This document shows positions 7,260 to 39,150 of a DNA stretch of 49,084 nucleotides, piece by piece. The position numbers and the translations under genes are program-made. The first letter of the stretch is position 1. Each line of letters opens with the position of its first letter. The notes under the pieces were generated by a model that did no database searches, was not told where the DNA came from, and saw only the letters and a program-made list of their open reading frames with translations. The DNA lies in IMG/VR virus record IMGVR_UViG_2851982317_000003; one strand, given 5' to 3'. The stretch is from a virus (lineage: Duplodnaviria > Heunggongvirae > Uroviricota > Caudoviricetes).

Positions 7260-7400
7260 GTTGTTGCGACATGGTGATAATAGCTATTGCTATTGATGAT
7301 ATCAATACTTATTGCTATTGATAGATGTGTTTTGATATTAAATATTTGATAGCAAAAAGAATTAATTTTGTGACTTGCATCGCATAGCGATAACTGAAGC
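7260..7400 (-). promoter_or_regulatory. Candidate OL/pL operator-promoter region (leftward early promoter)
   Basis: AT-rich block with repeated TTGCTATTG / TATTGAT motifs and an ATTGATGATATCAAT inverted repeat; the same words recur in the cI-cro intergenic region. Confidence 0.45.
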
Positions 7401-7477: not shown

Positions 7478-7990
7478 TTATTTCAAAGAAAAATTATGAC
7501 TAGCGTATCTTGGAAGAAATTCATATAGTGTTAATGTCTTAACGCCGTGAGAAGCAGCAGCATCCGGGATCATTATTCTTTTTTTAGGTTTGCCACCGGA
7601 TGGTTTCTCATGGGTAATAATAGTATATCCATGTGTCATCGCATGGGCTATTAAAAAAGCATCTGCTTTTTCATGGCTTGCAAAATCAAACTTTGCCTTT
7701 TCGGTAACATCTAATTTAGTTGACCAATTTATTAACTTTGCATAATTTTCTATTGAACTATGCTCATCTTCGAAGAATGATGATGGTAACTCTTCTTTAA
7801 TCCATTTACACAATGGATCATCTTTTGCACATAGTTCTTTTTTTACAGCATTAATGCTATAAATCAGACCATTAATGTGTAAAGCGAGAAGAAAATCCCA
7901 AAATATTTTGCAATAATTGAAGTTATATGCAAAGTTTTTTGCCTCTATGAAGACATTACTATCAATTAAGAATTTTCCATTATGAATCAT
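7478..7990 (-). CDS. DUF4411-family (PIN-like fold) protein; second gene of the cI-proximal accessory cassette
   Basis: 170-aa ORF (MIHNGKFLIDSNVFIEAKNF...); start overlaps the stop of the upstream peptidase gene (ATGA), i.e. translationally coupled. Confidence 0.65.
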   Translation of the reverse strand: MIHNGKFLIDSNVFIEAKNFAYNFNYCKIFWDFLLALHINGLIYSINAVKKELCAKDDPLCKWIKEELPSSFFEDEHSSIENYAKLINWSTKLDVTEKAKFDFASHEKADAFLIAHAMTHGYTIITHEKPSGGKPKKRIMIPDAAASHGVKTLTLYEFLPRYASHNFSLK

Positions 7991-8581
7991 AGAGATTCTC
8001 GTTTTTTATAAAATTCAACAACTGTATCTGCTTTTACATTTAGCAGTACGCCTGCTTCCCTTAATGGTAATTGTTGAGACATTGCTTTGGAAATTATTAT
8101 ATTCGTAAGTTTTGGACTGTTGCGAACAGGTAATGTGTTAAAGAAAGAACCACCATTAGATTCTTTTTTGGGCTTATTGTAAGCTTGATCTTTAATTATC
8201 TCCAAAGTGTTTCTTTCTATCAAATCTAATTGTAACGCTTTGATTGCACAAGCGAAATCACTAACCTTAAATAACTTAGAAACCTCTTTTACTCGATAAT
8301 AATTATTATCGCTGGATGCATTAAGCCAGAAAGATTTGAAGAGATTATCAGGCATTAAGATTTCAGCAGCAACTTTATTACAAAAAGATTCTATGTTTTT
8401 TTCTGTGTCCCACCCAGAGACTCCATCGACTCCAAGCCAAAGATGAGCCACCTCATGAAATAATGTAAATACCTGCGCAGATAACGCGTCCGAGCTATTT
8501 ACAAAAATGATCGGAGCAACGCTATCAGATATACAGAAACCACGAAACTCTCGCGTGTCAAGTTTTCTTTTATTATTATTA

Positions 8582-8590
8582 CCCACAACA
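8582..8590. repeat. IS1 target-site duplication, left copy (CCCACAACA)
   Basis: 9-bp direct repeat abutting the IS1 left terminus. Confidence 0.9.
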
Positions 8591-8645
8591 GGTGATGCTG
8601 CCAACTTACTGATTTAGTGTATGATGGTGTTTTTGAGGTGCTCCA

Positions 8646-8921
8646 GTGGCTTCCATTTCCATCAGATGTCCTTCCTGCTCCGCTACTGAAGGCGTGGTGC
8701 GTAACGGCAAAAGCACTGCCGGACATCAGCGCTATCTCTGCTCTCACTGCCGTAAAACATGGCAACTGCAGTTCACTTACACCGCTTCTCAACCCGGTAC
8801 GCACCAGAAAATCATTGATATGGCCATGAATGGCGTTGGATGCCGGGCAACAGCCCGCATTATGGGCATTGGCCTCAACACGATTTTACGTCACTTAAAA
8901 AACTCAGGCCGCAGTCGGTAA
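8646..8921 (+). CDS. insA: IS1 InsA
   Basis: 91-aa [46 protein letters not shown]... Confidence 0.95.
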
Positions 8922-9343
8922 CCTCGCGCATACAGCCGGGCAGTGACGTCATCGTCTGCGCGGAAATGGACGAACAGTGGGGCTATGTCGGGGCTAAATC
9001 GCGCCAGCGCTGGCTGTTTTACGCGTATGACAGGCTCCGGAAGACGGTTGTTGCGCACGTATTCGGTGAACGCACTATGGCGACGCTGGGGCGTCTTATG
9101 AGCCTGCTGTCACCCTTTGACGTGGTGATATGGATGACGGATGGCTGGCCGCTGTATGAATCCCGCCTGAAGGGAAAGCTGCACGTAATCAGCAAGCGAT
9201 ATACGCAGCGAATTGAGCGGCATAACCTGAATCTGAGGCAGCACCTGGCACGGCTGGGACGGAAGTCGCTGTCGTTCTCAAAATCGGTGGAGCTGCATGA
9301 CAAAGTCATCGGGCATTATCTGAACATAAAACACTATCAATAA
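8840..9343 (+). CDS. insB: IS1 InsB (made as an InsAB' fusion by frameshifting)
   Basis: 167-aa ORF in the -1 frame overlapping insA. Confidence 0.9.
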
Positions 9344-9358
9344 GTTGGAGTCATTACC

Positions 9359-9367
9359 CCCACAACA
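9359..9367. repeat. IS1 target-site duplication, right copy (CCCACAACA)
   Basis: Identical 9-mer abutting the IS1 right terminus. Confidence 0.9.
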
Positions 9368-9934
9368 CCATTCTTGAAAACTAATACGCCAGTGTCTTCT
9401 ATTAGTTTTGCCACTTTAGAAAAATAGCTCTCAAAAGTGACATTTTTTATCTCTTTTTGTATATCAAAATGTATTGTGTTTGCTATGTCTGTAGCAACAA
9501 CCTTATAATTTAATTTTCTATTAAATTTAAATTTACCAATAAAATCGAGTGGATCATCATTACCATTTTCTCTTAAATAGTCTTTGTACCACTCAAGTTT
9601 ATATTCTATATCATAGTAAACATCAAAAAAATCTTTTCCTAACTCACGGCTATTTATAGCTTGCCTTAAGTCAGGGATCTTGGGTTTGGCTGGAGTTGGT
9701 GGCGTTTCAAGAAATAAAAAACCGAAAGGGATTCCTCCAATTTTTGCCAGTTTTTCTGCTGCGGATTTACTTACCACTCCGTTAAGAAATTTATTAATCT
9801 TTTTGGGCATGACTTGGTCAGCAAGAGTTTCGATAGAAACTCCTTGAGAATTTGCTATCCAATCAATCATCTTCCTAGACAATTGAAATTCAACCGCTGC
9901 CATGTTATCACCTAGTTAAAAAAACCTATTATTC

Positions 9935-10761: not shown

Positions 10762-10829
10762 AACACGTTTTGCTATTGCTTGGATTAATACGCATTGCTA
10801 TTATTCATTCATTGCAATACCAATAGGAA
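10735..10829. promoter_or_regulatory. OR / pRM-pR divergent operator-promoter region
   Basis: Intergenic region between divergent cI and cro-like genes; palindrome ATACGCTTGCGTAT (10738-10751) and TTGCTATTG motifs. Confidence 0.55.
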
Positions 10830-11063
10830 TTGATAATGACAAATCAAACCATTCAACTCGCAATCAGTATTACAGGTAGTCAAAAACGACTGGCAGATCT
10901 ATGCGGTGTAGCCCAACCCACAGTTTGGCGTTGGCTACACGGTGGCGGAATTGATGCCCGCTATGTAATGAAAATTGTCTCAGCCACTGGTGGAAAGATT
11001 AAACCAGCAGATATTCGTCCCGACCTCGCACCATTGTTTAACGCGAGTAATTCTGCCGCCTAA
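10830..11063 (+). CDS. Cro-like / YdaS-like HTH regulator
   Basis: 77-aa HTH protein (QKRLADLCGVAQPTVWRWL) divergent from cI. Confidence 0.7.
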   Translation: MIMTNQTIQLAISITGSQKRLADLCGVAQPTVWRWLHGGGIDARYVMKIVSATGGKIKPADIRPDLAPLFNASNSAA

Positions 11064-13347: not shown

Positions 13348-13637
13348 CGGGAAAAGAAGCAATTATTCATTACCTGGGGACGCATAAGAGCTTCTGTGCG
13401 CAGGACGTTGCTGCGGTAACAGGCGCAACAGTAACCAGCATAAATCAGGCTGCGGCTAAAATGGCGCGGACAGGAATCTTAGTTATTGATGGTAAGGTCT
13501 GGCGAACGGTGTATTACCGGTTCGCTACCAAGGAAGAACGGGAAGGAAAGGTGAGCACGAATCTGATTTTCAAGGAGTGTCGCCAGAGTGCCGCGATGAA
13601 GCGGGTGTTGGCATTTTATCGCGGCAATTTTCAATAG
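13344..13637 (+). CDS. ren: Ren
   Basis: 97-aa ORF overlapping the P stop (ATGA); lambda Ren-like. Confidence 0.9.
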   Translation: MTGKEAIIHYLGTHKSFCAQDVAAVTGATVTSINQAAAKMARTGILVIDGKVWRTVYYRFATKEEREGKVSTNLIFKECRQSAAMKRVLAFYRGNFQ

Positions 13638-13674
13638 ACTATGTACATAAAAATATCATTTTTTTAATACATGT

Positions 13675-13881
13675 CTAATTATTGGACGAAATTGGTTTTT
13701 GCTTTGGTTTAGTTAGCCTAGCAATCAAGCCAGAGGCAATAATGATGATCCAAGCAATTTGATGCAATGCTACTCCAATATAAGAACCTTTATAGATAAT
13801 AAAGGCATAGATCGCTAGAAACGAAATAAATATCCATAACGAAAGTTGATAAATTTTGGCGCGCATATTTAATCCAATCAA
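13675..13881 (-). CDS. Small hydrophobic two-TM membrane protein (hypothetical)
   Basis: 68-aa ORF in an AT-rich tract; two hydrophobic segments. Confidence 0.35.
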   Translation of the reverse strand: MIGLNMRAKIYQLSLWIFISFLAIYAFIIYKGSYIGVALHQIAWIIIIASGLIARLTKPKQKPISSNN

Positions 13882-14122
13882 TCAGAAAGACGAGTAATCA
13901 TAGAGGTACTATCACCCGGGTAACTATTGCTATTATGAACGGATAGGATAGAGGCTTCAATAACATATGCATCAAGTATGATGGAATATGTAGATGAAAA
14001 TGACTTGTGTCAAATTTGTGGAAATGAGTACCATGTTTCTCTGAAATTGATGTCGTTAATGGCTAGTGATAGTGAACTTTTTTACTTTATAATTCCTTTG
14101 GTTATAACAATAAGGTAAATTT

Positions 14123-14683
14123 ATGAAGAAGATAATATTATTAGCCATGATTATTGGTTCTTTAACAGGTTGCGCTAGTGTGCCACCATTGAATTTTTCA
14201 ACACCTAACGTGGGAGTTAGCCAGAAAAAAATAGATGCTGAAATTAAGTCATTAACGGTATCACTTGCTCGTCCAGATGAGCAGAAAGGGGATATCACTG
14301 CTGGTATGGAGGCTATAACTCCAATTTGGCGTGAATCTTTGCAGGAAGCACTCGACCGAATGACTATTTTTCGTGATAGTTCACCAAATACGGTTAGCTT
14401 AAATGTTAAAGTGTTGGCTCTTGACGTTCCTGCTTTTGGTGTTTCAATGACAACTAAAGCAATTGCAAGGTATGAAATAATCAACCGTGCGAATGGTGAT
14501 ATTATATATACGCAGGATATTGAGTCTACCGGTACTGTTCCAGCCAGTTACGCATTCTACGGTATTGTTCGAGCACGCGAATCTGTTAATCGCGCGGTGC
14601 AAAACAACATAACGCAGTTCTTGCAAGCATTAGAAAGTGTTGATCTTTCTCGTCCAATGTTTCCTGTTAGGGTAGCTAAATGA
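14123..14683 (+). CDS. Lipoprotein of unknown function (signal peptide + lipobox LTGC)
   Basis: 186-aa ORF MKKIILLAMIIGSLTGCAS...; good RBS; in AT-rich accessory DNA after ren. Confidence 0.7.
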   Translation: MKKIILLAMIIGSLTGCASVPPLNFSTPNVGVSQKKIDAEIKSLTVSLARPDEQKGDITAGMEAITPIWRESLQEALDRMTIFRDSSPNTVSLNVKVLALDVPAFGVSMTTKAIARYEIINRANGDIIYTQDIESTGTVPASYAFYGIVRARESVNRAVQNNITQFLQALESVDLSRPMFPVRVAK

Positions 14684-15132
14684 AGCGATTATTCGTAATT
14701 GCTCCACTCTTAGTGTTGGTTGGATGCGCACAAAATATATCGCCAAATAATTATTCTGTTGGCTCTGTGGGCATGGTTAATCGAACTATCGCTGGTACAG
14801 TTATTAGTGCCAGGGGGGTTGATATCAGTGGGACTTCCGCGTTAGGCGGGACTGCTGGGGCTGCCGTGGGGGCAACCGCTGGTTCTGCGCTTGGTGGGGG
14901 AGTTCGTTCTAATATCGTTGGTGCCGTTGGTGGTGCAGTCATTGGTGGTATTGCCGGGGCAGCAATCGAATCTTCAGTAACAAAACAAACAGGCATGGAA
15001 TATGTTGTCGAAACTGAGAATGGGAATTTAATGACCATTGTTCAAGGCAAAGATCCGTTATTTACTCAAGGAAGTAAGGTCCTTGTTTTATACGGAAACT
15101 CTTCTCGCATAATAACAGACCCGCGTCACTAA
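14680..15132 (+). CDS. SlyB-like glycine-zipper outer-membrane lipoprotein
   Basis: 150-aa ORF with lipobox (LVGCAQ) and Gly-zipper (GGTAGAAVGATAGSALGGGV...GAVGGAVIGGIAGAAI); start overlaps the upstream stop (ATGA). Confidence 0.7.
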   Translation: MKRLFVIAPLLVLVGCAQNISPNNYSVGSVGMVNRTIAGTVISARGVDISGTSALGGTAGAAVGATAGSALGGGVRSNIVGAVGGAVIGGIAGAAIESSVTKQTGMEYVVETENGNLMTIVQGKDPLFTQGSKVLVLYGNSSRIITDPRH

Positions 15133-15322
15133 CATACCTTTTGATTTTGTAAAATCAATTCGTAATAATAAAGTCATCGGAGCTTGAACAACTCCGGTGA
15201 CTTCTGCGCTAAACGGGGACGTTTATGCGCACATACAATCCAAACTCTCTTCTCCCTTCACAGATGCAGAAATGCACCTGCGATTTTTTGCATCCAGCGT
15301 CTGACCTCTGCGGAGGTGAAGC

Positions 15323-17385: not shown

Positions 17386-18468
17386 TTAGAACTGATACAC
17401 CAGACCTACAGCGACGATGTCGTCGGTATCAATACCAGCTGTTTTGGTAAACTTACTATCGTCAATTAAGTTGATTTTGTAATCAACAAAAGTGGACATG
17501 TTTTTATTAAAGTAGTAAGTAGCACCGACATCGACATACTTGACTAAGTCTCGGTCACCATGAACACCAAGGTCTTTACCTTTTGACTGAAGGTAAGCAA
17601 CAGATGGTCGCAGACCGAAGTCAAACTGATATTGTGCTACTGCTTCAAAGTTTTGTGCTTTGTTTGCAATATGGTTATTACCAAAAACGGTCATATTCTG
17701 AGTTTCAGAATATGTGGTAGCCAGATAGATATTGTTCGCATCATATTTCAGGCCTGCAGCCCATACTTCCGCATTTTTGCCGGAGGCATTGAATTTGCTC
17801 TTACCATAGGCGACCTGACCGTCAGTGCGATCTGATTTAGCATAGGTTGCACCCACGCCGAATCCTTCATACTCATAAGTAGTGGAGAAACCGAAACCAT
17901 CACCATTGGCTTCAGTTACGTCAGTGCGGTCATTTTTACCCTGATACTGAGCAGCAAAGTTCAGGCCATCGACCAGACCAAAGAAGTCGTTGTTACGATA
18001 GGTTGCAACACCAGTGGTGCGACCAGTCATGAACACATCTGTTTGGGTCCAGGTATCGCCACCGAATTCTGGCAGAACGTCAGTCCACGCACCGATGTCG
18101 TATGCTACACCGTAGTTACGGCCGTAATCGATTGAGCCGTAGTCACCGAATTTCAGGCCTGCAAATGCAAGACGGGTTTTGTCTTTGGAGGAACCTTGAG
18201 ATTCAGCGCGGTTGCCTTTGAATTCATATTCCCACTGACCGAAACCAGTCAGTTGATCGTTGATTTGGGTTTCACCTTTGAAGCCAAGACGGGCATAAGT
18301 AGTATCACCATCATCTGCATCATTAGAGGAGAAGTAGTGCTTAGCATTAACTTTCCCGTACAGATCCAGCTTGTTACTGTCTTTATTATAAATTTCAGCT
18401 GCCTGAGCAGACATCGCCATCAGTACTGATGCAGCTACAGCAGAAATTGCCACTGTTAATTTTTTCAT
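17386..18468 (-). CDS. nmpC: OmpC-family trimeric porin, phage-borne (Lc / NmpC-like lysogenic-conversion gene)
   Basis: 360-aa ORF with signal peptide ([23 protein letters not shown]), AEIYNKD...C-terminal VYQF; between Q and holin in opposite orientation. Confidence 0.9.
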
Positions 18469-35836: not shown

Positions 35837-36252
35837 GTTTTGCCCTGAAACTGGCGCGTGAGATGGGGCGACCCGACTGGCGCGCCATGCTTGCCGGGAT
35901 GTCATCCACGGAGTATGCCGACTGGCACCGCTTTTACAGTACCCATTATTTTCATGATGTTCTGCTGGATATGCACTTTTCCGGGCTGACGTACACCGTA
36001 CTCAGCCTGTTTTTCAGCGATCCGGATATGCATCCGCTGGATTTCAGTCTGCTGAACCGGCGCGAGGCTGACGAAGAGCCTGAAGATGATGTGCTGATGC
36101 AGAAAGCGGCAGGGCTTGCCGGAGGCGTCCGCTTTGGCCCGGACGGGAATGAAGTTATCCCCGCTTCCCCGGATGTGGCGGACATGACGGAGGATGACGT
36201 AATGCTGATGACAGTATCAGAAGGGATCGCAGGAGGAGTCCGGTATGGCTGA
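35818..36252 (+). CDS. T: Tail assembly protein T, expressed as a G-T fusion by -1 programmed frameshift
   Basis: ORF in the -1 frame overlapping the G 3' end, downstream of the slippery site. Confidence 0.9.
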   Translation: MFDGELSFALKLAREMGRPDWRAMLAGMSSTEYADWHRFYSTHYFHDVLLDMHFSGLTYTVLSLFFSDPDMHPLDFSLLNRREADEEPEDDVLMQKAAGLAGGVRFGPDGNEVIPASPDVADMTEDDVMLMTVSEGIAGGVRYG

Positions 36253-38824
36253 ACCGGTAGGCGATCTGGTCGTTGATTTGAGTCTGGATGCGGCCAGATT
36301 TGACGAGCAGATGGCCAGAGTCAGGCGTCATTTTTCCGGTACGGAAAGTGATGCGAAAAAAACAGCGGCAGTCGTTGAACAGTCAATGAACCGGCAGGCG
36401 CTGGCTGCACAGAAAGCGGGGATTTCCGTCGGACAGTATAAAGCCGCCATGCGTATGCTGCCTGCACAGTTCACCGACGTGGCCACGCAGCTTGCAGGCG
36501 GGCAAAGCCCGTGGCTGATCCTGCTGCAACAGGGGGGTCAGGTTAAGGACTCCTTCGGCGGGATGATCCCCATGTTCAGGGGGCTTGCCGGTGCGATCAC
36601 CCTGCCGATGGTGGGGGCCACCTCGCTGGCGGTGGCGACCGGTGCGCTGGCGTATGCCTGGTATCAGGGCAACTCAACCCTGTCCGATTTCAACAAAACG
36701 CTGGTCCTTTCCGGCAATCAGGCGGGACTGACGGCAGATCGTATGCTGGTCCTGTCCAGAGCCGGGCAGGCGGCAGGGCTGACGTTTAACCAGACCAGCG
36801 AGTCACTGACGGCGCTGGTGAATGCCGGTGTGCGTGGTGGTGAGCAGTTTGAGGCGATCAGCCAGAGTGTGGCGCGTTTCTCCTCTGCATCCGGCGTGGA
36901 GGTGGACAAGGTCGCTGAAGCCTTCGGGAAGCTGACCACAGACCCGACGTCGGGACTGACAGCGATGGCACGTCAGTTCCATAACGTGACGGCGGAGCAG
37001 ATTGCGTATGTTGCTCAGTTGCAGCGTTCCGGAGATGAAGCCGGCGCATTGCAGGCGGCGAGCGAGGCCGCAACGAAAGGGTTTGATGACCAGACCCGCC
37101 GCCTGAAAGAGAACATGGGCACGCTGGAGACCTGGGCAGACAGGACAGCACGGGCATTCAAATCCATGTGGGATTCGGTGCTGGATATTGGTCGCCCGGA
37201 CACTGCCCAGGGAATGCTGGAGAAAGCAGAAAAGGCTTTTGATGAGGCGGACAAAAAATGGCAGTGGTATCAGAGCCGGAGCCACCGGCGCGGTAAAACC
37301 TCAGCATTTCTTGCCAATCTCCGGGGAGCATGGGAGGACAGAGCGAATGCGCAACTTGGACTTTCAGCCGCCACGTTGCAGGCCGATCTTGAAAAGGCCA
37401 GAGAGATGGCAGCAAAGGACTGGGCCGAGTCTGAGGCATCACGGCTGAAATATACCGAAGAGGCGCAGAAGGCTTACGAACGGCTGCAGACGCCGCTGGA
37501 GAAATATACCGCCCGTCAGGAAGAACTGAACAAGGCACTGAAGGACGGGAAAATCCTGCAGGCGGATTACAACACGCTGATGGCGGCGGCGAAAAAGGAT
37601 TATGAAGCGACGCTGAAAAAGCCGAAACAGTCCGGCGTGAAGGTGTCTGCGGGCGATCGTCAGGAAGACAGTGCTCATGCTGCCCTGCTGACGCTTCAGG
37701 CAGAACTCCGGACGCTGGAGAAGCATGCCGGAGCAAATGAGAAAATCAGCCAGCAGCGCCGGGATTTGTGGAAGGCGGAGAGTCAGTTCGCGGTACTGGA
37801 GGAGGCGGCGCAACGTCGCCAGCTGTCCGCACAGGAGAAATCCCTGCTGGCGCATAAAGATGAGACGCTGGAGTACAAACGCCAGCTGGCTGCACTTGGC
37901 GACAAGGTTACGTATCAGGAGCGCCTGAACGCGCTGGCGCAGCAGGCGGATAAATTCGCACAGCAGCAACGGGCAAAACGGGCCGCTATTGATGCGAAAA
38001 GCCGGGGGCTGACTGACCGGCAGGCAGAACGGGAAGCCACGGAACAGCGCCTGAAGGAACAGTATGGCGATAATCCGCTGGCGCTGAATAACGTCATGTC
38101 AGAGCAGAAAAAGACCTGGGCGGCTGAAGACCAGCTTCGCGGGAGCTGGATGGCAGGCCTCAAGTCCGGCTGGAGTGAGTGGGAAGAGAGCGCCACGGAC
38201 AGTATGTCGCAGGTTAAAAGTGCAGCCACGCAGACCTTTGATGGTATTGCGCAGAATATGGCGGCGATGCTGACCGGCAGTGAACAGAACTGGCGCAGCT
38301 TCACCCGCTCCGTGCTGTCCATGATGACAGAAATTCTGCTTAAGCAGGCAATGGTGGGGATTGTCGGGAGTATCGGCAGCGCCATTGGCGGGGCTGTTGG
38401 TGGCGGCGCATCAGCGTCAGGCGGTACAGCCATTCAGGCAGCTGCGGCGAAATTCCATTTTGCGACCGGAGGATTTACGGGAACCGGCGGCAAATATGAG
38501 CCAGCGGGGATTGTTCACCGTGGTGAATTTGTCTTCACTAAGGAGGCAACCAGCCGGATTGGCGTGGGGAATCTCTACCGGCTGATGCGCGGCTATGCCA
38601 CCGGCGGTTATGTCGGTACACCGGGCAGCATGGCAGACAGCCGGTCGCAGGCGTCCGGGACGTTTGAGCAGAATAACCATGTGGTGATTAACAACGACGG
38701 CACGAACGGGCAGATAGGTCCGGCTGCTCTGAAGGCGGTGTATGACATGGCCCGCAAGGGTGCCCGTGATGAAATTCAGACACAGATGCGTGATGGTGGC
38801 CTGTTCTCCGGAGGTGGACGATGA
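36245..38824 (+). CDS. H: Tail tape-measure protein H
   Basis: 859-aa ORF MAEPVGDLVVDLSLDAARFDEQMARVRRHFSG... Confidence 0.97.
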   Translation: MAEPVGDLVVDLSLDAARFDEQMARVRRHFSGTESDAKKTAAVVEQSMNRQALAAQKAGISVGQYKAAMRMLPAQFTDVATQLAGGQSPWLILLQQGGQVKDSFGGMIPMFRGLAGAITLPMVGATSLAVATGALAYAWYQGNSTLSDFNKTLVLSGNQAGLTADRMLVLSRAGQAAGLTFNQTSESLTALVNAGVRGGEQFEAISQSVARFSSASGVEVDKVAEAFGKLTTDPTSGLTAMARQFHNVTAEQIAYVAQLQRSGDEAGALQAASEAATKGFDDQTRRLKENMGTLETWADRTARAFKSMWDSVLDIGRPDTAQGMLEKAEKAFDEADKKWQWYQSRSHRRGKTSAFLANLRGAWEDRANAQLGLSAATLQADLEKAREMAAKDWAESEASRLKYTEEAQKAYERLQTPLEKYTARQEELNKALKDGKILQADYNTLMAAAKKDYEATLKKPKQSGVKVSAGDRQEDSAHAALLTLQAELRTLEKHAGANEKISQQRRDLWKAESQFAVLEEAAQRRQLSAQEKSLLAHKDETLEYKRQLAALGDKVTYQERLNALAQQADKFAQQQRAKRAAIDAKSRGLTDRQAEREATEQRLKEQYGDNPLALNNVMSEQKKTWAAEDQLRGSWMAGLKSGWSEWEESATDSMSQVKSAATQTFDGIAQNMAAMLTGSEQNWRSFTRSVLSMMTEILLKQAMVGIVGSIGSAIGGAVGGGASASGGTAIQAAAAKFHFATGGFTGTGGKYEPAGIVHRGEFVFTKEATSRIGVGNLYRLMRGYATGGYVGTPGSMADSRSQASGTFEQNNHVVINNDGTNGQIGPAALKAVYDMARKGARDEIQTQMRDGGLFSGGGR

Positions 38825-39150
38825 AGACCTTCCGCTGGAAAGTGAAACCCGGTATGGATGTGGCTTCGGTCCCTTCTGTAAGAAAGGTGCGCTTTGGTGA
38901 TGGCTATTCTCAGCGAGCGCCTGCCGGGCTGAATGCCAACCTGAAAACGTACAGCGTGACGCTTTCTGTCCCCCGTGAGGAGGCCACGGTACTGGAGTCG
39001 TTTCTGGAAGAGCACGGGGGCTGGAAATCCTTTCTGTGGACGCCGCCTTATGAGTGGCGGCAGATAAAGGTGACCTGCGCAAAATGGTCGTCGCGGGTCA
39101 GTATGTTGCGTGTTGAGTTCAGCGCAGAGTTTGAACAGGTGGTGAACTGA
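38821..39150 (+). CDS. M: Tail tip protein M
   Basis: 109-aa ORF. Confidence 0.95.
   Translation: MKTFRWKVKPGMDVASVPSVRKVRFGDGYSQRAPAGLNANLKTYSVTLSVPREEATVLESFLEEHGGWKSFLWTPPYEWRQIKVTCAKWSSRVSMLRVEFSAEFEQVVN

Follow-up and report, generated by a model that had tools for sequence, protein, structure and literature searches.

The stretch of DNA analysed here (the window, 49,084 nucleotides of IMG/VR virus record IMGVR_UViG_2851982317_000003) is an intact lambda-like Escherichia coli prophage, which is 99.7% identical to the isolated phage PhiR30_1 over this stretch and adjoins ybhC in related genomes. Between its ren and ylcH/ybcN genes lies a short segment that encodes two predicted lipoproteins, one of 186 residues (LipoA) and one of 150 residues resembling SlyB, together with a small open reading frame (ORF) on the opposite strand (Table 1). 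The flanking genes are readily recognised as Ren (phrog_142, 8e-43) and YbcN/NinB (NF007281, 2e-83). In blastn comparisons with 4A7, PhiR47_2 and the DLP12 prophage of strain K-12, homology of the backbone stops at 13610, within the last 27 nt of ren, and restarts at 15139/15140, 7 nt past the stop codon of the second lipoprotein gene; the cargo is therefore placed between these points, close to the 13640-15132 of an earlier note on this DNA. In DLP12 this slot is filled by emrE-ylcJ-ybcK-ybcL-ybcM, and in 4A7 and PhiR47_2 by genes for a small multidrug resistance (SMR) pump, a recombinase and an esterase-like protein, while no phage record was found in which the flanks are directly joined around an empty slot. 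As homology breaks exactly around the segment and other genes occupy its place in all three phages, it is a moron, an exchangeable piece of cargo in the ren-ybcN slot, just as had been proposed.

The further description of this insert as AT-rich holds for the segment overall, with a GC content of 0.39 against 0.509 for the window, a composition unlike that of the backbone. It does not extend to all of its parts: the small ORF and the divergent intergenic region have a GC content of 0.33 and the first lipoprotein gene one of 0.405, but the second, which is rich in glycine and alanine codons, reaches 0.468 and is not itself AT-rich. Of 5426 complete E. coli genomes, 279 (approximately 5%) have the 1.56-kb stretch as a single chromosomal copy that is at least 99% identical. 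In IAL7250, the one carrier genome examined, the cassette is intact, and the immunity region of the prophage and part of ren are gone.

Table 1. Features of the cargo segment, in window coordinates
Feature	Position	Strand	Basis or remark
Cargo (moron) segment	13611-15139		Takes the place of other cargo between ren and ylcH/ybcN in DLP12-type lambdoid phages; blastn and GC content
Orphan small ORF with two hydrophobic stretches	13675-13881	-	68 residues from TTG, 63 from ATG at 13866; coding status uncertain
11-mer ATTGCTATTAT	13926-13936	+	Second copy in OR at 10794-10804; judged a chance match
Candidate sigma-70-like promoter, GTGATA-16-TATAAT	14066-14093	+	Consensus scan, 10/12 matches; about 30 bp upstream of the gene at 14123
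LipoA, predicted outer-membrane lipoprotein of 186 residues, unnamed family	14123-14683	+	Predicted fold like the LptE/PqiC/PelC/TraT core
ATGA start/stop overlap (translational coupling)	14680-14683	+	Read from the sequence
SlyB-family glycine-zipper protein of 150 residues, divergent subfamily, predicted outer-membrane lipoprotein	14680-15132	+	phmmer, identity, AlphaFold2 model
Predicted two-helix glycine-zipper hairpin, residues 55-101	14842-14982	+	AlphaFold2 model, alignment with E. coli SlyB

The coupling of the two lipoprotein genes through a 4-nt overlap recurs in Klebsiella oxytoca and at other loci. Both products begin with a basic n-region and a hydrophobic core, followed by a classical lipobox (LTG-C17 in the 186-residue protein and LVG-C16 in its partner) and an alanine at position +2, and the lipobox cysteine is invariant in both family alignments, that of the 150-residue protein comprising 34 relatives. 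Since there is no aspartate to act as an inner-membrane retention signal, the +2 rule predicts that the Lol pathway would sort both to the outer membrane. The claim of a translationally coupled lipoprotein pair is thus upheld, and the checks proposed with it, namely lipoprotein prediction and structural modelling, yield lipoboxes in both proteins, a SlyB-like model for the shorter and a model of LptE-like fold for the longer.

The likeness of the 150-residue protein to SlyB is found in sequence and in predicted structure alike, in agreement with the earlier note. A phmmer search of all PDB chains matches its residues 2-149 to residues 3-155 of SlyB (7ojf/7ojg, E = 7e-15), and BLASTP aligns it end to end with E. 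coli SlyB at 33% identity (E = 7e-13). An AlphaFold2 (AF2) model built from 34 relatives, with a predicted local distance difference test score (pLDDT) of 70, has a strand at residues 36-49, helices at 55-71 and 75-101, and four strands, making up a beta segment, a hairpin and a C-terminal beta domain; its only significant Foldseek match in the PDB is 7ojf_A, the SlyB13-BamA complex (E = 2e-9, template-modelling (TM) scores 0.67/0.71). From the lipobox through the beta segment and glycine-zipper hairpin to the C-terminal beta domain, its parts follow one another as in the PhoPQ-induced SlyB (b1641). By contrast with slyB, the cargo gene is phage-borne, stands second in an operon with a partner, and has neither slyA as a neighbour nor a PhoP box. 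Furthermore, the alignment places T58, A62 and T66 at the positions of SlyB I65, V69 and F73, and small residues are found there across the whole subfamily. The scores against the Pfam glycine-zipper models PF05433 and PF13488 fall below the gathering cut-offs (21.1 against 24.2 bits, and 17.8 against 25), and some relatives do bear precomputed matches to PF13488 or PF05433. Its lipobox, homology and predicted fold place the protein in the SlyB family as a divergent member, one that departs from the family in its lipid-binding residues, in PhoP control and in the Pfam threshold. SlyB itself oligomerises, its glycine-zipper hairpins forming rings around phospholipid patches, porins and BamA when lipopolysaccharide is disturbed (bioRxiv 10.64898/2025.12.22.696046, 10.64898/2026.06.08.730324).

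A comparable arrangement exists in E. coli K-12, where the yfgH gene for a glycine-zipper outer-membrane lipoprotein, proposed like SlyB to be an outer-membrane stabiliser, adjoins a second small envelope gene, yfgI; relative to the cargo pair, the gene order is reversed. YfgI was rejected as a relative of the 186-residue protein (hhalign probability 1%), as was YfgH as a close relative of the SlyB-like one, for which the similarity was weak (E = 0.03 in a single two-sequence comparison).

The 186-residue protein had been assigned to no known family, and indeed no model in Pfam, NCBIfam or PADLOC matched it, the only match being to phrog_12521, of unknown function; nor did the profile of its family find anything among PDB sequences. 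Its model shows a lipoprotein signal peptide followed by a small alpha/beta sandwich, in which two helices pack on an antiparallel sheet. The figures listed for its fold relatives are 12.9 for 2iqi (DUF330, PqiC-like), 10.6 for PelC, 10.1 for LptE, 9.5 for CsgG, 9.1 for PqiC and 7.3 for TraT. With LptE, PqiC (2iqi), PelC and CsgG there is no relationship at the level of sequence, identities being 7-15% with no match in Pfam or to PDB sequences, and the BFVD viral structure library yielded only weak matches of low TM score, namely ERF/Rad52 folds and a phage protein resembling CsgG. On the evidence of the model, the protein therefore has the fold of the LptE/PqiC/PelC/TraT core and falls outside all named families. 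When 1.8 billion representatives were searched with the family profile, 981 clusters passed E <= 1e-3 and 97 passed E <= 1e-30, and the family alignment has 35 invariant columns, including PPLNFSVPNVGVS directly after the lipidated cysteine and RARESxNRxxQNNI in the last helix.

Public records label this protein (e.g. XSB42265.1, WP_000720581.1) as a 'UDP-N-acetylglucosamine acyltransferase' and, more recently in RefSeq, as a 'YajG family lipoprotein'. The former is a propagated annotation error: no acyltransferase model in Pfam or NCBIfam matches, and the model is of an alpha/beta sandwich lipoprotein. The LpxA fold is a left-handed beta-helix. The latter label was likewise rejected, as the NF008637 score is 11.4 bits where 242 are required, and comes from the signal-peptide region alone, none of 37 family members matches PF03923 (Lipoprotein_16) even at E <= 10, and hhalign against E. 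coli YajG covers only the first 52 columns, with a probability of 77%.

The level of linkage between the two genes was studied at 84 loci outside E. coli, comprising 65 genome loci from one-per-species genomes, mostly of alpha-, beta- and gammaproteobacteria, and 19 viral contigs. At 59 of the 65 genome loci and on 13 of the 19 contigs, the next gene downstream is a SlyB-like gene in the same orientation. When all ORFs near the pair were clustered all against all, the only recurring ones were the two lipoprotein genes themselves, in 81 and 73 of the 84 loci; no third conserved gene and no recurrent toxin gene was detected beside them. The systems in which the fold relatives of the 186-residue protein participate are not represented there either, there being no Lpt (lptD), pqiAB/mce, Pel or csg (curli) genes near the pair. 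Compared with the E. coli copies, the first protein is 54-84% identical and the second, for the most part, some 50-75%, and the figure is approximately 60% between the copies of the E. coli phage and those of Xanthomonadales or Burkholderiales. Saturation of synonymous sites is seen even when enterobacterial copies are compared with each other, with a dN/dS of about 0.07 in the only two comparisons that gave a ratio, implying old divergence under strong constraint.

Several of these copies are chromosomal. In Stenotrophomonas the pair lies between a TonB-dependent receptor operon and ispH-lspA-ileS, in K. oxytoca between an SRAP-domain gene and a cold-shock-domain gene, and in Bordetella among toxin-antitoxin and insertion sequence (IS) genes. 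Four places in temperate phages were also found, with the pair in three of them and the gene for the 186-residue protein alone in the fourth. Besides the ren-ybcN slot, the pair is present in a prophage of Xanthomonadales type (locus L099, 4965-7682), where it adjoins, and is convergent with, an S24 cI-type repressor gene, which is followed by a cro-like gene (YdaS) and cII (Phage_CP76); the same S24 repressor family was found at nine further loci. In a siphovirus-type phage (L096-L098; pair at 5001-6013 in L096 and 3391-4403 in L098, first protein 73% identical) it lies on the same strand as its neighbours, with the tape-measure gene on one side and the minor tail genes M/L/K/I on the other, and a distant relative also adjoins a minor tail gene. 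At locus L109 the first gene is found alone, antisense, between the Q antiterminator gene and Bro/lysis genes. The pair has thus been collected repeatedly by unrelated temperate phages, and this repeated independent capture, twice on the strand opposite to the phage neighbours (L099 and L109), fits with morons that are expressed in the lysogen.

The position within the tail cluster could alternatively indicate a late or structural role in the phage itself, in tail assembly, DNA injection or lysis. There, the pair is co-oriented with the tape-measure gene and gpM between which it sits, and the SlyB-like protein has weak matches to tape-measure and gpI sequences. These matches are to low-complexity stretches rich in glycine and alanine, however, and in the window the tape-measure gene (36245-38824) abuts the next tail gene (38821-39150) with no pair inserted. 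As the pair also exists in chromosomes with no phage genes nearby, and lipoprotein signal peptides are predicted to direct both products to the outer membrane of the host, such a role is scarcely credible.

A more serious competitor is superinfection or surface exclusion, in which the pair would cage or cover outer-membrane proteins used by phages or conjugative pili, in the manner of Cor, Llp or TraT. That temperate phages have captured it repeatedly, also within a cluster of tail genes and next to a repressor, would suit such a function, since exclusion genes such as cor, llp and rex occur at just these tail-cluster and repressor-side positions, and rings of SlyB surround OmpF/C and BamA. 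Cor (of phi80, N15 and HK022) and Llp (of T5) are likewise phage-encoded outer-membrane lipoproteins, specified by accessory genes of which some adjoin tail genes. Nevertheless, they are single small proteins directed at one receptor, FhuA, and have no detected similarity to the cargo pair, which is conserved across bacterial classes and also outside phages. Identity of around 60% between classes with very different receptors, under strong purifying selection, is not what would be expected of exclusion proteins engaged in an arms race, and the copies on chromosomes outside phages again argue against this function. PADLOC returned no defence-system match for any of the three cargo proteins, and PHROGs gave two families of unknown function and weak matches, with no exclusion protein among them. 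The earlier suggestion of superinfection exclusion or envelope remodelling is reasonable as a hypothesis, but exclusion is regarded as unlikely: conservation of this kind, extending to non-phage loci, favours a generic envelope target, and with it tolerance of envelope stress, over exclusion specific to a receptor.

The comparison with TraT, the surface-exclusion and serum-resistance lipoprotein of IncF plasmids (PDB 9e2v, 9fs5), deserves separate consideration. The LptE/PqiC/TraT-core fold is characteristic of lipoproteins that assemble into rings, plug or bind barrels, or bind anionic glycolipids, and TraT unites such a core with two ring-forming transmembrane helices in a single chain (PMC12658005). 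The cargo consists instead of two polypeptides without sequence similarity to TraT. Moreover, the topology of the TraT hairpin is opposite, the loop being periplasmic and the core of TraT lying outside, exposed at the surface, which counts against a TraT-like mode of exclusion. The resemblance of the pair is therefore one of analogy and not of membership. Taking the analogy at face value, the pair might constitute a TraT in two chains, with the LptE-fold lipoprotein seated on a ring of SlyB-type hairpins in which a remodelled lipid-binding face would accommodate a protein, and the resulting cage might sequester surface proteins whatever their identity; this is a speculative and rather improbable extension.

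It is similarly improbable that the pair protects against envelope attack from sources other than phages, such as bacteriocins, tailocins, periplasmic or membrane effectors of type VI secretion systems (T6SS), antimicrobial peptides or complement, the last through serum resistance akin to that of Bor, Iss or TraT. Lipoproteins of the periplasm often serve as immunity proteins, a PAAR-Tle1 gene is found near one locus, and prophages of this type have other surface cargo, namely a porin in the window (17386-18468) and iss, a homologue of bor, in a related E. coli genome. Set against this, the T6SS neighbour is a single case, and among the 84 loci there is no toxin gene that recurs beside the pair.

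A link between expression of the operon and the prophage repressor had also been suggested, from a copy of an 11-mer of the right operator region (OR) upstream of the operon; its position, given as 13925-13935, is corrected to 13926-13936. The operators of the CI protein of this phage are probably represented by 17-bp dyads, TATTGATGATATCAATA at 7291-7307 (perfect) and TATTGCTTGGATTAATA at 10774-10790, and by TTGCTAT cores, both derived from the two operator regions: the left operator (OL) and PL lie near 7270-7360 and OR at 10762-10835, and five of the nine copies of the core in the window are in OL/OR. The 11-mer contains this core, and a second OR 11-mer, ATTGCTTGGAT, is present in the cargo at 13748 in reverse orientation. 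These two, however, are as many 11-mers as OR would be expected to have in common with the rest of the window (2.0 +/- 1.8). Outside the operators the core occurs four times, where around six copies would be expected by chance in the whole window, and only one of them is in the cargo, which has no operator-like dyad at up to three mismatches. The flanks of the 11-mer also differ from those in OR, and the DNA upstream of the conserved module is unrelated in other hosts. Repressor control is therefore not supported, and it is very improbable that the 11-mer ties the operon to CI.

The ORF on the opposite strand is present where it had been reported, with 68 residues if read from TTG, and is annotated in PhiR30_1 as a hypothetical protein of 63 residues starting at the ATG. 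Its status as a gene is uncertain because a frame of 68 codons, rich in isoleucine, phenylalanine and leucine at 33% GC, constitutes weak evidence for a gene. Searches of 5.8 billion proteins and of phage records recovered only near-identical E. coli copies, and the ORF is absent from all loci outside E. coli; hence it is not part of the conserved module.

A number of other features of the prophage were recorded. Just to the right of the cargo, in the backbone upstream of ylcH/ybcN, a 10-bp stem, GTCATCGGAG ... CTCCGGTGAC, with one G-U pair, a 9-nt loop and no T run can be read by eye at 15172-15205. In the left part of the immunity region, genes for a DUF4411 protein (7478-7990, minus strand) and a Peptidase_M78/ImmA-IrrE protein (7987-8604, minus strand) overlap by 4 nt, and are candidates for accessory genes expressed in the lysogen because they lie between OL/PL and cI, the place of rexAB in lambda. 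They are followed by a copy of IS1 (8646-9343, plus strand; InsA domains at 8646-8921, IS1 transposase at 8840-9343) and, adjoining cI, by an ORF of 188 residues with no Pfam family (9337-9903, minus strand). The porin gene, antisense on the minus strand downstream of the Q antiterminator gene, encodes a full-length general porin of nmpC/ompD type (Porin_1, 2e-151), and represents a second outer-membrane cargo in the same prophage.

The interpretation tentatively preferred for the lipoprotein pair, which is possible without being assured, is that of a mobile two-gene cassette expressed in lysogens, whose products would assemble in the outer membrane into a ring of SlyB type plus a dedicated partner and confer tolerance of envelope stress. 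The operon would be transcribed in the lysogen from its own promoter, the candidate being the sigma-70-like site of Table 1, and both proteins would reach the outer membrane through the Lol pathway. There the SlyB-like protein would oligomerise into a ring, and the LptE-fold protein would join it as a stoichiometric partner, which may touch the inner face of helix 1, where threonine, alanine and threonine replace the bulky lipid-binding residues of SlyB. Such a complex would alter the organisation of the outer membrane, so that the lysogen better tolerates envelope stress, with the shielding of surface proteins as a possible side effect.

Several observations weigh against this proposal. Replacement of I65, V69 and F73 in helix 1 by alanine abolishes phospholipid binding by SlyB, and its function (bioRxiv 10.64898/2026.06.08.730324). 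Because these phospholipid-binding residues are not kept, the 150-residue protein may not work as SlyB does. The partnership is not obligatory, given that the first gene stands without a SlyB-like gene at around 11 of the 84 loci, and no naturally fused form of the pair came to light, the long members of the family (P0128, P0130, P0180, P0203 and P0124) having neither a SlyB-like part nor a Pfam domain. As regards expression, the promoter is a candidate that derives from a consensus match in AT-rich DNA, in a region where the count of such sites is not above that expected after shuffling; a PhoP box, (T/G)GTTTA-N5-(T/G)GTTTA at up to three mismatches, does not occur in 13882-14122; and the cargo, ending 7 nt beyond the last stop codon, has no terminator of its own. 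Finally, searches of the literature for the pair, its protein accessions or the phage returned nothing relevant, and no SlyB-type protein was encountered that had been described as phage-borne or as having a dedicated partner.

The immediate consequence of these results is that the two misleading public annotations of the 186-residue protein, as an acyltransferase and as a member of the YajG family, merit correction. Were the cage analogous to TraT to prove real, it would provide both lysogens and chromosomal carriers with a broad, receptor-independent exclusion of phages, pili or toxins, and would represent an unrecognised envelope defence module spanning bacterial classes. More generally, SlyB has recently been described as a main device of the outer membrane against stress, and the cassette constitutes a natural experiment on the differences between SlyB paralogues. 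If the two proteins do form a complex, this would imply that glycine-zipper rings can work with accessory subunits, and the pair would offer a small, portable handle on outer-membrane organisation, on resistance to phages and serum, and on lysogenic conversion.

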